Source: an uncultured Chloroflexia bacterium (GTDB lineage Bacteria; Chloroflexota; Anaerolineae; JAAYZQ01). Taken from it: a DNA stretch of 64,000 nt. Position 1 is the first letter of the stretch, and each line of letters starts with the position of its first letter. The stretch covers positions 466,249 through 530,248 of the forward strand of contig CAWANP010000012.1 in NCBI GenBank assembly GCA_963783445.1, written 5' to 3'. Below the pieces are notes generated by a model that saw only the letters and a list, made by a program, of their open reading frames with translations, was not told the DNA's origin and searched no databases. The position numbers and the translations under genes are program-made. Shown here piece by piece: positions 19,584 through 23,141 of this stretch.

Positions 19584-20435
19584 CTATTTCTTGTCTTTCT
19601 TGTCCTTGCCTTTCTTTCTTTTCCCTTTGGACTTTTTGCCTTTCTTCTTCTCCTTCTTGCTCTTGTCCTGTTCGGCCTTTTGTTTTGCTCTGTCAGCTTT
19701 GGACAGAGGGTCCGGCGGGAGATAATCCAGTTCCTCGCTCAGCAGGTTCACCAGGGTTCTCAGGGTCTTTACCCTGGCGTACCACTTGCAGTCGCCCTCA
19801 ACGATGGTCCACGGGGCAGTGAGCGTGCTCGTCTTGAGGATCATATCGCTGATCGCTTCTTCGTACAGATCCCACTTTTCCCGGTTGCGCCAGTCCTCGT
19901 CGGTCAGTTTCCAGGCCTTGTAGGGTATCTCGCTGCGCGCCTCAAAGCGACGCAATTGCTCGTCCTTGCTGATCTGGATCCAGAATTTTGCCAGGATTGT
20001 GCCAAAATCGGCCAATTGGCGCTCGAACTCGTTGATCTCACGGTAAGCGCGCTTCCACTCTGCCTCGGTACAAAAACCTTCCAGCCGTTCAACCATCACC
20101 CGACCGTACCAGCTGCGGTCAAAGAAAAGGATCTGCTTTTCGTCGGGCGCCTGGAGACGCCGCCAGAAACGCCATAGGTAGTGGTGTGTCTTGTCTTCGC
20201 CTTGAGGCGCGGCGATGGGGTAAACTTCATAGCCCCGCGGGTCCAGCTTCTCCGTGATGCGTTTGATGTTGCCGCCCTTGCCGCCAGCATCCCATCCCTC
20301 GTAGACGATCACCAGCGGCCGCTTTTGAACGTACAACTGATAAGCCAGGGCGCGTAGCTGCAGTTGGTAGCGGATCAAATCGCGAACGTATTCGTCTCTC
20401 GTCAGCGTCTTGCTCAGATCAACGGTCTCCAGCAT
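19584..20435 (-). CDS. ppk2: polyphosphate kinase 2 (single-domain PPK2) with 30-aa poly-Lys C-terminal tail
   Basis: Walker A VYEGWDAGGKGG, lid/PPK2 motifs FDRSWYGR; tail KQKAEQDKSKKEKKKGKKSKGKRKKGKDKKDKK. Confidence 0.85.
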   Translation of the reverse strand: MLETVDLSKTLTRDEYVRDLIRYQLQLRALAYQLYVQKRPLVIVYEGWDAGGKGGNIKRITEKLDPRGYEVYPIAAPQGEDKTHHYLWRFWRRLQAPDEKQILFFDRSWYGRVMVERLEGFCTEAEWKRAYREINEFERQLADFGTILAKFWIQISKDEQLRRFEARSEIPYKAWKLTDEDWRNREKWDLYEEAISDMILKTSTLTAPWTIVEGDCKWYARVKTLRTLVNLLSEELDYLPPDPLSKADRAKQKAEQDKSKKEKKKGKKSKGKRKKGKDKKDKK

Positions 20436-20444
20436 GGCTCCCTC

Positions 20445-21332
20445 CTACTCCTCTCCCGCCTGCGCCTCTGCTTCGGCCGCTAGCTCTGCTTCCAGGTCGT
20501 CACCGTCGTCGTCATCTTCCTCCGAGAACACCTCATCCAGGTATTCATGTTCCCCTGGCAGCTCGGGCGCCCGCTCCGTCTTGCGATCGGGGCGTGGTCG
20601 CTCTTCTGGTAGCTCAAAGCCCCGCTCCTTCAGTGCTTCCTCCAGGCGCTGGATGATGGTCTGAAAAATCTTGACCCGCGCCCAGCGTCGATCTGTGGCC
20701 TCGACGATGGTCCATGGTCCCCACTCGGTATCGGTTCGTTCCAGCATCTCCTCGATGGCCAGCACATATTCGTTGTATTTGTGGTGGTGATCCCAATCCT
20801 CTGGCTGCACGTGCCAACTCTTGAGCGGGTCCTTTTCCAGTTTCTTGAAGCGGCGTTTTTGCTCCTTCTTGCTGATGTGCAGGAAGAACTTGATCACGAC
20901 GTAACCATCATCGGCGATGGTCCGCTCAAAGTCGTGGATGTCCCGGTAGCCCCTCCGCCATTGCGACACTGGCGTCAGGCCCTCTACCCGCTCTACCAGA
21001 ACGCGGCCATACCAACTCCGGTCAAAGATAGCCATCTCGCCATAGTTGGGCAGCTTCAGCCAGAATCGCCACAGCCAGGGAAGGTGGGTCTCAAAGGTGC
21101 GTGCCCCCTGGATGGCATAGAGTTTGAACCCGCGCGGATCAAGGCGCGAAGTCAGCAGGTTGATGGAGGTCCCTTTGCCGGCAGCATCCCAGCCCTCAAA
21201 GACGATGACGCTGGGCAATTTCGCATCCCAGCAAGCCTTTTCCAGGTCGTAGAGACGCCGCTGCAGGCGGGGAATCAGGACTTTGTACTCTTCTTTCGGC
21301 AGCTTGCGGCTGAGGTCGATTTTTTCCAGCAT
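20445..21332 (-). CDS. ppk2: polyphosphate kinase 2 paralog with acidic C-terminal tail
   Basis: VFEGWDAAGKGT, FDRSWYGR; tail EEDDDDGDDLEAELAAEAEAQAGEE; 9 nt from previous PPK2. Confidence 0.85.
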   Translation of the reverse strand: MLEKIDLSRKLPKEEYKVLIPRLQRRLYDLEKACWDAKLPSVIVFEGWDAAGKGTSINLLTSRLDPRGFKLYAIQGARTFETHLPWLWRFWLKLPNYGEMAIFDRSWYGRVLVERVEGLTPVSQWRRGYRDIHDFERTIADDGYVVIKFFLHISKKEQKRRFKKLEKDPLKSWHVQPEDWDHHHKYNEYVLAIEEMLERTDTEWGPWTIVEATDRRWARVKIFQTIIQRLEEALKERGFELPEERPRPDRKTERAPELPGEHEYLDEVFSEEDDDDGDDLEAELAAEAEAQAGEE

Positions 21333-21356
21333 AGATGACGACTCCTTCCAGTCCCC

Positions 21357-23141
21357 CTACAGAACCATGACCGCTTCTGCAATCAACTGACTGAAACTTG
21401 CTCCTGTAAGCTTTTGCCATGCCCCGGGAAAGGTGTTCAATCGATGCTGCATCTCCGCTTGCTGGGCCGCCAGGTAGGCGGTTACGCCTGGGGAGACGAT
21501 CGCCCGCTCAGGGTCGGACAGGTGTTCTGGGCTGGCTTGTTCCCCCCACGTTCCCAGGCAAAGATAGTCGCCCAGGATGCTGCTGGCCACGACGGTATCT
21601 TGCAGGGCGCCCAGGTGATCTTGCATCACGACCACCTCCTCGATGATGGTCCCGGTATCCGGCCCCAGCACCTCTTGGAAGAATTCCAGTGTGTAGCGTA
21701 GCCGCTTGCACGCGATGCGCAAGGCATGCAGCCGGGCCGGCGGCGGGTCGGGGATGCAGACCCACTCGTCGTAGGCGCGCACATTTGCCAGCCGCTGGTA
21801 TATGGTCACGGGAGCTACGTGGCGCACCCGGTAGGGTCCTGGGTCGTCGTCGCCGGGCTCGACGGAGAGACTGCCCATCCCAAAAGTCTCCAAAAATGCA
21901 CCAAATTGATCCACAAAACGCCGGTACTGTTTCCCGTCCAGGTGGGTGAGCATCTGGGCACGGGCTGCATCGCGTTGTCTCTCCAGGACGACCAGTAGGT
22001 CATCCAGGCTGTCCTGTTGCGATTCGGGCAGTGTATCCAGATATGCCTGGACTGTGGCCCGAAATACATCCAGGTCGCGTACCGAACCGAGGGCTCGACC
22101 GGTCCGCTTTAATCCCTTTAGATAGGGTGCTATCGCCTTGGTCTCGTAATAGGGGCCAAAGATTCGGAAGGCAGCCCGCATGCGCCGCGTGGCAACCCGC
22201 ATGTCGTGCAGAGCCTTGATGTCTTCCCCCAGGCGCGTACCCGACTCATTGTCAACCATTCGCCGGAAGTGGAAACGCAGGGTCTTGCGGCCAGCTTCGC
22301 CCATGGGATCGTCGGGTTCGACGCCTGGGCGCTCGAGCAATCGGACTTGCTCCCGGTGTATCTGTTCGCCTTCAACGCTGCTCGCCTCGACGGACGTGGT
22401 CCATGCTCCCTTGGTTGGGCTTTCCCCAACGGTTGTCGGCACTCGGTCTACCATCGAGTTCTCCATGGCCGGTATGGACGGCGACTGACCGGCAAGTGAG
22501 ACTTGGCGGGAGGCTTCCGGCCCTGCAACCCCTTCATTGTCGAGGGCCAACCCCCGCTCGTACTTGGACCGGCTCTCCGGCACCAGCTCCCATGCTGCCT
22601 GCAACCCTGTGCTGAGCTGTTCCAGATCCTCTTCACGGCCATCAGCAACCAGTTCCGCTTCTAGTTCCAGGAAGGTCGTAGCCACGTCTCCCCGGGAAAT
22701 GGACACACGGTCCAAGCTCACTTCGGCAACCAGGCGGTCGCCGTCGCAGAGGGAACGGCTATGCCGGGTCTGTTTGACCTCAAACAGGGTGGTCAGCTCC
22801 TCATTGCCGCATAAGCGTAGCACAGTGTCACGCGCGGCCCCGGGCGGCCATTCCTGAGGCGGCTGGGGCTCAGGTAGCTCAACCTGGTGTTCCTCCCGTC
22901 GATGGATGGCGCCTGAAACCCCTCCAAGGCCCTTGAGCGTCGCTAGCGTGATTCTGTTTGTCTGGCGTATTCGACAGGCATATCCCCCAGCGTAGACTGT
23001 CCCATTCTGGGTTTCCAGATAGCGGTCGTGCAGATCAGCGATGGACACCTTGCCAAGGGTGAATCTGGCCAAGGTGTCTGTCTCCAGCAATCGCTGAAAC
23101 GCCTCCTCATCGGGGATCTGGAATTTGGCCTCAATCTCCAA
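21357..23141 (-). CDS. CYTH (triphosphate tunnel metalloenzyme) + CHAD domain protein
   Basis: N-terminal EIEAKFQIP (ExExK) CYTH signature; long helical C-terminal CHAD-like region; adjacent to PPK2 pair. Confidence 0.7.
   Translation of the reverse strand: MEIEAKFQIPDEEAFQRLLETDTLARFTLGKVSIADLHDRYLETQNGTVYAGGYACRIRQTNRITLATLKGLGGVSGAIHRREEHQVELPEPQPPQEWPPGAARDTVLRLCGNEELTTLFEVKQTRHSRSLCDGDRLVAEVSLDRVSISRGDVATTFLELEAELVADGREEDLEQLSTGLQAAWELVPESRSKYERGLALDNEGVAGPEASRQVSLAGQSPSIPAMENSMVDRVPTTVGESPTKGAWTTSVEASSVEGEQIHREQVRLLERPGVEPDDPMGEAGRKTLRFHFRRMVDNESGTRLGEDIKALHDMRVATRRMRAAFRIFGPYYETKAIAPYLKGLKRTGRALGSVRDLDVFRATVQAYLDTLPESQQDSLDDLLVVLERQRDAARAQMLTHLDGKQYRRFVDQFGAFLETFGMGSLSVEPGDDDPGPYRVRHVAPVTIYQRLANVRAYDEWVCIPDPPPARLHALRIACKRLRYTLEFFQEVLGPDTGTIIEEVVVMQDHLGALQDTVVASSILGDYLCLGTWGEQASPEHLSDPERAIVSPGVTAYLAAQQAEMQHRLNTFPGAWQKLTGASFSQLIAEAVMVL

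Follow-up and report, generated by a model that had tools for sequence, protein, structure and literature searches.

Adjacent PPK2 genes with oppositely charged tails in Chloroflexota match the two halves of a polyphosphate:AMP phosphotransferase

Introduction

Why should two adjacent genes encoding polyphosphate (polyP) kinases of the PPK2 family end one in a lysine-rich tail and the other in an acidic tail, next to a gene for a CYTH-CHAD protein? The question is raised by a locus in a 64-kb stretch of contig CAWANP010000012.1 (hereafter the window), from an uncultured Chloroflexia bacterium. Positions 19584–23141 of the window are filled by three co-oriented open reading frames (ORFs) of the minus strand, which encode the CYTH-CHAD protein, a first PPK2 protein (PPK2-A, or A), and a second one (PPK2-B, or B). 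We found that the genes of A and B are tightly coupled and that many Chloroflexota have kept both the tails and the order CYTH-CHAD/A/B.

Enzymes of the PPK2 family have wide use in the regeneration of nucleotides and a central place in the polyP energy metabolism of bacteria. To our knowledge, hetero-oligomeric PPK2s have so far been inferred and never shown. The most relevant precedent is the survey of GTDB genomes by Matsumoto, Matsuura and Longo (Proteins 2024, PMC11968564), in which adjacent class II PPK2 genes nearly always encode single-domain proteins and the commonest pairing is that of an N-like with a C-like protein. In the same study, hetero-tetramers mimicking the two-domain enzyme were inferred, with the support of AlphaFold2 (AF2) models, and the N-domain was presumed to be non-catalytic.

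Results

The two PPK2 proteins correspond to the two domains of class II PPK2

The genes of A (20445–21332, 295 aa, C-terminal end ...EEDDDDGDDLEAELAAEAEAQAGEE) and B (19584–20435, 283 aa, C-terminal end ...KSKKEKKKGKKSKGKRKKGKDKKDKK) lie, like all the features of the locus described below, on the minus strand. The cores that precede the tails span aa 1–238 in A (20619–21332), the N-domain-like half, and aa 1–236 in B (19728–20435), the C-domain-like half. Both proteins match the Pfam PPK2 profile (PF03976, cut-off 22.3), B with 284.3 bits (E = 9e-85) and A with 234.8 bits (E = 1.2e-69). Neither reaches the cut-off of the NCBIfam model TIGR03708 (NF050016; 365.7 and 291.6 bits against 547.65), of which each matches only one half (positions 260–493). 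In a comparison with the two-domain PA3455 of P. aeruginosa (3CZP), the scores of B are 264 bits for the C-domain against 121 for the N-domain; the corresponding scores of A, 205 and 142, are shifted towards the N-domain. Among 115 fused homologs retrieved by protein searches, A is closer to the N-domain in 113 (52%–63% identity) and B is closer to the C-domain in all of them (60%–73% identity). The order of the genes, A then B, is also that of the domains, N then C. As judged from these comparisons, the N-domain of two-domain class II PPK2 (polyphosphate:AMP phosphotransferase, or PAP, of the PA3455 type) has its ortholog in A and the C-domain in B, and the two genes thus encode separately the halves of this enzyme. 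We rejected a simple tandem duplication: A and B are 41% identical, and each is nearer to a different domain of the fused enzyme.

Both proteins have the Walker A (GxxxxGK) and Walker B (D-R) motifs of P-loop kinases, which are kept in their orthologs: GWDAAGKGT and FDRSWYGRV, both intact, in A, and GWDAGGKGG and FDRSWYGRV in B. Both also have, after the Walker B Tyr, the Gly (FDRSWYG) that is the signature of class II as defined in PMC11968564. They differ in the lid, which is conserved by lineage: B has EDWRNREKW, where B proteins and C-domains have EDWRNRxKW, and A has EDWDHHHKY instead, where A proteins have EDW(E/D)HH(R/H)KY and N-domains have related forms. B is presumably the catalytic half.

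The two-domain PAPs (PA3455, 3CZP, TIGR03708) have the same two domains as the pair A and B, in the same order and with the same class II Gly, and the same pseudo-dimeric fold can be expected of the pair. The AF2 model of a fused relative, P0127, which is 63% identical to A over the N-domain and 65% identical to B over the C-domain, has a predicted local distance difference test score (pLDDT) of 91.6 and a predicted TM-score (pTM) of 0.87, and can be superposed on 3CZP over its two domains (TMq 0.84, TMt 0.92). We infer from this fit that the packing of N against C, intramolecular in the fused enzyme, would be available to A and B as an intermolecular interface. In contrast to the two-domain PAPs, the two domains are here on separate polypeptides. 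A neutral linker of ~22 aa has given way to a 57-aa acidic tail followed by a stop codon, a Shine-Dalgarno sequence, and a start codon, and B carries an additional C-terminal Lys tail of 47 aa. Furthermore, PA3455 has a degenerate Walker B in its N-domain, where the N-like half of the window has an intact one. B also shares the C-like catalytic domain of class II with the single-domain PPK2-II structures of Bacillus cereus (9GIA) and Lysinibacillus fusiformis (9H8J, 9GP9), to which it aligns over its full core (E = 1.5e-77 for 9GIA, up to 1.8e-71). Unlike the pair of the window, each of these entries has one type of chain and no N-like chain. These chains (269–289 aa) align to B and to A almost up to their C-termini, which leaves no space for a long charged tail.

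The pair fits the definition of split pairs in PMC11968564 (N-like and C-like genes, co-directional, less than 500 bp apart), since its genes are on the same strand and 9 nt apart, and its arrangement is identical to that of the pairs described there. A split class II PPK2 is therefore a known kind of system, already inferred computationally, and not a new one. The words 'tail', 'lysine', and 'Chloroflex' are absent from the text of that study, which also describes neither charged tails, nor their conservation or covariation, nor an operon with CYTH-CHAD. A search for Lys-rich tails on PPK2 gave nothing in the corpus that could be searched. In the literature searched, we found no description of the tails of opposite charge, of their absence in fused relatives, or of the CYTH-CHAD operon of Chloroflexota.

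These results bear on the first-pass annotation of the window, which had reported two tandem PPK2 paralogs with opposite tails, co-oriented with a CYTH-CHAD gene. The ORFs are exactly as claimed in content, orientation, and tails. The two PPK2 genes are indeed an adjacent pair, but as the N-like and C-like halves of one enzyme rather than as simple tandem paralogs. Because they are such halves, a heteromer would be expected from the globular interface that is intramolecular in PA3455 (3CZP), and not primarily from the tails.

Organization of the locus and its CYTH-CHAD protein

The three genes follow each other closely. The CYTH-CHAD gene (21357–23141, 594 aa, TTG start) is separated from A by 24 nt that contain GGAAGGAG, and the 9-nt spacer that parts the stop codon of A (TAG) from the start codon of B (ATG; spacer at 20436–20444) is the Shine-Dalgarno-like GAGGGAGCC, in keeping with translational coupling of the two genes. 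A promoter-like site (TTGCGA-17 nt-TG-TATAAT, 23238–23266) with 10 of the 12 consensus positions lies ~97 nt upstream of the CYTH-CHAD start. It is a candidate operon promoter, found within the cluster upstream of CYTH-CHAD only, and was called by its match to the consensus alone (3 sites found against 1.3 expected in shuffles). We found no terminator-like site on the minus strand from 23141 to 19584. It is thus plausible, from these signals, that the three genes form one operon. None of the large ORFs checked elsewhere in the window is a further polyP gene.

In the window, A and B share the reading frame, with TAG and three codons in between (…AGEE*EGAM…), and readthrough of the stop of A would yield a fused enzyme of 582 aa with an acidic linker. 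Stop-codon readthrough, or a recent nonsense split, was nevertheless rejected: among 63 split loci (see below), the three relative frames occur 16 (in frame), 24, and 23 times, with no enrichment of in-frame pairs.

The CYTH-CHAD protein matches the Pfam profiles of CYTH (PF01928, ~22650–23138; E = 4.3e-14, 53.2 bits for a cut-off of 23.2) and CHAD (PF05235, ~21573–22280; E = 2.2e-57, 195.1 bits for a cut-off of 25.6). Its N-terminus, MEIEAKF, has the ExExK signature that, together with the profile match, defines the CYTH family of triphosphate tunnel metalloenzymes (TTM), and a low-complexity linker of ~120 aa joins the two domains. CHAD, a domain of two four-helix bundles, has been described as a module specific for polyP, found on granules and not binding nucleic acids, whose genes cluster with those of polyP enzymes (PMC6537752). 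By its profile match, the domain of the window belongs to this family, and polyP binding can be predicted for it. In the PDB, the protein matches the CHAD structures 6QV7 and 3E0S (3e-26) and the inorganic triphosphatase YgiF of E. coli (5A60, 2e-5). The protein shares with these TTM(CYTH)-CHAD proteins the CYTH plus CHAD architecture, the ExExK motif, and a CHAD of the long type. It differs from them in that its group has a long and hypervariable inter-domain linker, with stop-to-stop frames of 538–1123 codons in the relatives, and in that some relatives encode CYTH and CHAD as separate genes. The latter are adjacent at L001 5424–7089, L023 6355–9172, L035 323–2884, and L041 6584–9124 (L and P numbers designate our loci and proteins). 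With its separate and fused forms, CYTH-CHAD adds another fission/fusion polymorphism to that of PPK2 in this operon.

Split pairs in Chloroflexota and Acidobacteriota

We scanned one genome per GTDB species, and parsed the 80 loci returned for PPK2, CYTH, and CHAD. Split pairs were found in 63 of them, always A then B, and mostly with gaps of -17 to +18 nt. They are from Chloroflexota (~47, in Anaerolineae, Thermoflexia, and others), Acidobacteriota (~13, in Bryobacterales and Solibacteraceae), and one genome labelled as a deltaproteobacterium. More distant loci, including those of Planctomycetota, Omnitrophota, Nitrospirales, and KSB1, encode fused proteins without tails. CYTH-CHAD, as one gene or two, is in the locus of 37 of the 63 split pairs, nearly all of Chloroflexota, and is directly upstream of the pair in almost all of them. 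The fixed association of CYTH-CHAD with a split PAP appears to be specific to Chloroflexota. In a few loci of this phylum, CYTH-CHAD is instead downstream of B (L053 6126–8954, L062 10753–12678, L025 4096–5718).

The split pairs of Acidobacteriota have short tails and no CHAD gene. Overall, the median net charge of the tails is -11 (A) and +7 (B) in loci with CHAD, and -3 and +4 in those without it, a contrast that is confounded by phylum and, in some loci, by the truncation of contigs. In a neighbour-joining tree of the concatenated cores, midpoint-rooted and without support values, a few fused proteins (P0123/P0124, P0125, and P0127/P0006) are found among the split ones, and vice versa. The two states have thus switched more than once, by fission or by fusion. 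The nested fused proteins have short non-acidic linkers and no poly-Lys tail.

Two loci have broken genes. The A gene of L009 (8871–10324) seems split into two frames, in a metagenome-assembled genome labelled as Acidimicrobiales whose locus is Chloroflexota-like, and the B gene of L040 (7627–8478) has an in-frame stop. These could be pseudogenes or errors of assembly or binning.

The charge of both tails is conserved, their sequence only in part

The tail of A (aa 239–295, 20448–20618) has 57 residues and a net charge of -19, and stands where fused enzymes have their interdomain linker. That of B (aa 237–283, 19587–19727) has 47 residues and a net charge of +14, with 17 Lys in 30 residues, and begins after a conserved ELDYxPPDP junction. 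The core of A has a charge of +6 and that of B of 0, so that the pair with its tails is almost neutral. Such tails are exceptional in the window: its six frames hold 248 stop-to-stop segments of 100 aa or more, and among these only the two adjacent genes have at least 10 Lys or at least 15 Asp/Glu per 30 residues.

All 69 single-domain orthologs of B, with 79%–96% identity over the core, have a Lys-rich tail (16–32 Lys/Arg in the last 50 residues), even if the sequences of these tails cannot be aligned with one another. All 53 orthologs of A have an acidic tail (14–29 Asp/Glu in the last 60 residues), which is made of three parts: a conserved anchor (ERGFELPEE), a variable, indel-rich spacer of acidic residues and Pro, and a conserved terminal motif. 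This motif (...LEAELAAEAEAQAGEE in the window, 20448–20495) has the form E(E/D)xDSExLEAELAAEAEAQAGEE and is present in most of the 53 proteins; L280, E283, A286, and A290 are conserved in at least 90%. A related motif, (D/E)AELRA, is found in the A tails of Acidobacteriota and in the linker of the fused P0127, and the tail of A therefore seems to derive from the interdomain linker by elongation. In 120 fused relatives, by comparison, this linker has a median length of 22 aa (range 14–31) and a median net charge of +1, and the C-terminal extension has a median of 3 aa.

The composition of the B tail is that of PASK motifs, defined as windows of 20 aa with at least 75% of D/E/S/K and at least one Lys (PMC12345225). 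In the window, B has 16 such residues out of 20 (KQKAEQDKSKKEKKKGKKSK), and motifs of this kind are present in 61 of the 69 B orthologs, in 1 of the 53 A orthologs, and in 3 of 250 fused relatives. Non-covalent binding to polyP has been described for Lys repeats and for PASK motifs, which are infrequent in model bacteria (PMC12345225). The tail of B resembles such motifs and Lys-rich granule proteins (yeast Nsr1 and Top1, E. coli YihI, P. aeruginosa AlgP) in being disordered and Lys-rich, with D/E/S. PolyP binding is known for the motifs, and a role in the organisation of granules is known for the Lys-rich C-terminal domain of AlgP. In the locus studied here, by contrast, the motif is on a polyP-consuming enzyme, is paired with an acidic tail, and is known from the sequence. 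An exhaustive search of representatives with the core of B returned, among the best 150, mostly two-domain proteins. Lys-rich C-termini are rare among these 150: seven have 9 or more K/R among their last 25 residues, with P0238 as the only clearly comparable case.

The tail of B in L026 (10818–10955) shows a mode of expansion: its DNA is a tandem repeat of a 27-nt unit in 5.1 copies, encoding approximately AKKDKTKGK. In the window, the DNA of the B tail has a weak periodicity of 9 nt. The tails evolve partly by tandem duplication, to judge from these repeats. L026 also has a third, more distant PPK2 gene ~4 kb away (4642–5580, minus strand).

The two tails are loosely coupled

The net charges of the tails of A and B are negatively correlated (Spearman -0.58, n = 54; -0.47 within Chloroflexota, n = 40), and remain so, though less strongly, in phylogenetically independent contrasts computed on the neighbour-joining tree (r = -0.34, p = 0.015). 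The coupling is real but loose, which fits tails that have functions of their own and also gain from a balance of charges. Either tail can be associated with other domains. In one subclade of Anaerolineales, a DUF498/MTH938-like domain (PF04430, E = 1e-21) follows a short Lys run of B (L035 3813–4985, L036 6764–8023, L041 9983–11164, L047 9770–11176, L044, and protein P0257). Where the contig of these loci includes the A gene, the A tail is still acidic. In four genomes, an acid-flanked helix-hairpin-helix (HhH) domain like that of RNA polymerase's alpha-subunit C-terminal domain (PF03118, E = 7e-8) is in the tail of A, whose genes are at L014 8916–9995, L016 4484–5605, L030 2361–3422, and L040 6580–7623.

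We can now return to the remaining claims of the first-pass annotation. It saw in the three genes a compact module of polyP utilization, and CYTH-CHAD followed by A and B does recur in most of the relatives from Chloroflexota. It had set in advance the search for the same tails in orthologous pairs, and took tails conserved in no relative as the sign of random drift. In fact, the character of both tails is conserved in more than 100 cluster representatives and ~40 species-level genomes. Its suggestion of an electrostatic heterodimer stands in part: the modest covariation of the charges supports it, whereas the sign test and the counter-examples given below do not. Its alternative, a basic polyP anchor paired with an acidic mask, appears compatible with everything that we have seen, and is the one developed in the next section.

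A proposed role for the split enzyme and its tails

We propose that the locus is a three-gene operon for polyP utilization, in a Chloroflexota bacterium of the Anaerolineae type, that encodes a YgiF-like CYTH-CHAD protein and the halves of a split PAP, with a Lys tail as anchor and an acidic tail as mask. We regard the split PAP and the operon as highly probable. The roles given to each of the tails are tentative, with chances somewhat below even, and we judge the explanation taken as a whole to be evenly balanced between right and wrong. In this explanation, contacts between the globular domains of A and B would build an A2B2 hetero-tetramer resembling the dimer of PA3455. B, which has the canonical lid, would transfer phosphate from polyP to AMP, giving ADP, and A, with its intact P-loop and Walker B and its altered lid, would be structural or regulatory. 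The disordered PASK-type tail of B could be a polyanion anchor on polyP chains or granules, where the CHAD protein would also bind, and the acidic tail of A, a lengthened remnant of the interdomain linker, could be a tethered counter-ion. Without polyP, the acidic tail would neutralise or mask the Lys tail and the positive core of A; polyP would displace it. The CYTH tunnel enzyme might then clear the short-chain or tripolyphosphate end products, with CHAD putting this activity on the same polymer.

Several observations weigh against parts of this proposal. A retains both Walker motifs and may itself be catalytic. The tails are not required for the split state, given the short tails of the split pairs of Acidobacteriota. 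The coupling of the tails is not seen in a sign test on the contrasts (28 against 18, p = 0.18), and there are exceptions to it in both directions: Lys tails with a weakly acidic partner in L012, L076, and L045, as well as on the fused P0238, and acidic tails with a short or weak basic partner in L038, L032, and L039. The HhH domain in the tail of A hints at contacts with DNA or proteins rather than at a simple masking of charges. The AF2 model of A alone, built with 48 close orthologs, is poor (pLDDT 59), and shows its tail as a coil with a low-confidence helix at residues 278–292. Neither this helix nor the homologous one of the P0127 linker (residues 249–260, with a pLDDT of only 58–71) speaks for or against the idea that a linker helix docks on the C-domain.

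An extension of the proposal makes the paired tails a polyP-gated electrostatic switch on the split enzyme. In the free A2B2 complex, the tethered acidic tail, as a mimic of polyP, would occupy the Lys tail and perhaps the basic track for polyP, and so leave the enzyme inactive, in solution, and away from nucleic acids. PolyP of long chain length would displace it, and would recruit and activate the enzyme on granules decorated by CHAD. We consider such a switch unlikely. If it does exist, the fission of the gene gave rise to a regulatory device that senses the substrate, or to a condensate client, with no counterpart in the fused enzyme.

Other explanations of the tails must be weighed against the anchor and mask. 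One is that the tails evolved after fission mainly to hold the halves together, or to help them co-assemble, in place of the covalent linker, in which case polyP binding would be incidental. Both tails are expanded in split genes only, the fused forms nested in the split clade lack both, the charges of the tails are negatively correlated and nearly cancel out overall in the window, and the tail of A is exactly where the linker was, with the (D/E)AELRA motif common to the linker of P0127 and the A tails of Acidobacteriota. Yet the pairs of Acidobacteriota, and several of Chloroflexota (L022, L029, L031), manage with short and weakly charged tails, and unpaired tails are known (L012, L076, P0238, L038). 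The covariation is weak once corrected for phylogeny, and the conserved globular interface between N and C suffices in the AF2 models of hetero-tetramers of PMC11968564. It is improbable, then, that cohesion is what the tails are mainly for. That both tails are low-complexity sequence, made by slippage and tolerated without function at termini freed by fission, might be suspected from tails that cannot be aligned and vary in length from 13 to 93 aa, and from the tandem repeats visible in the DNA (27 nt in 5.1 copies in L026, the weak 9-nt periodicity in the window). Neutral drift is nevertheless very improbable, the least likely of the rivals, because the sign of the charge is constant in more than 100 orthologs (69/69 and 53/53) and in ~40 genomes with 65%–97% core identity, the anchors and the terminal motif have been kept, and AAR-rich coding is maintained against a genomic G+C of 59%. 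The presence of only two such segments in 64 kb, and the association of the strength of the tails with CHAD linkage, also argue against it.

The Lys tail might instead bind DNA or RNA, like the histone-H1-like tails of AlgP, PhaF, Ku, and TopA, and so position the enzyme or the polyP granules on the nucleoid, with the acidic tail as a modulator similar to that of HMGB1. Lys-rich C-terminal tails of bacterial proteins, including Ku and TopA, do bind DNA, and AlgP connects granules to the nucleoid (PMC9239181); the HhH domains in four A tails point in the same direction. On the other hand, the substrate of the enzyme is itself a polyanion that binds Lys repeats, CHAD, the partner in the operon, is specific for polyP and does not bind nucleic acids (PMC6537752), and the composition of the B tail is of the PASK type (K/D/E/S) and not that of the AKP-type repeats of histone H1. 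We therefore think it quite unlikely that the tails serve as a nucleoid tether.

If the anchor and the mask are what we propose, the locus would show how bacteria can direct an enzyme that consumes polyP and gate its activity. PolyP binding of the PASK type, rare in model bacteria, would then reach into a large environmental phylum, and simple tags could be conceived with which to immobilise PPK2 biocatalysts on polyP or to tune them. The main value of the clade is as a clean and testable natural system for the hetero-oligomerisation of PPK2 and for the targeting of an enzyme to polyP by charged tails: it is a well-populated natural test case of split PAP with disordered tails of opposite charge, in which the tail-less fused revertants provide the controls.

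Neighbouring genes

The window is syntenic with the closest genome, L004, to which its nucleotide identity is ~90% over 19.5 kb. Between B and the gene of a sugar-binding protein, the window has a remnant of a formylglycine-generating-enzyme-like (FGE/SUMF1-type) gene (19390–19560, minus strand). It is frameshifted and limited to the ~80 C-terminal aa (…GNAWEWAGA / VYQAYPGDSAGDRYDSEQYWVIRGSGWFDD…DLGFHCARSK). The congeneric L004 has, directly after B, an intact version encoding a secreted protein of 339 aa (L004 10875–11894); the window has thus lost ~800 bp by deletion. In L001, a gene for an RluD-type pseudouridine synthase (8892–9824) immediately follows the operon. In the window, a cluster of sugar ABC transporter genes (15495–19388), made of two permease genes and a gene for a solute-binding protein and also present in L004, lies between the operon and the homologous synthase gene (14482–15408).

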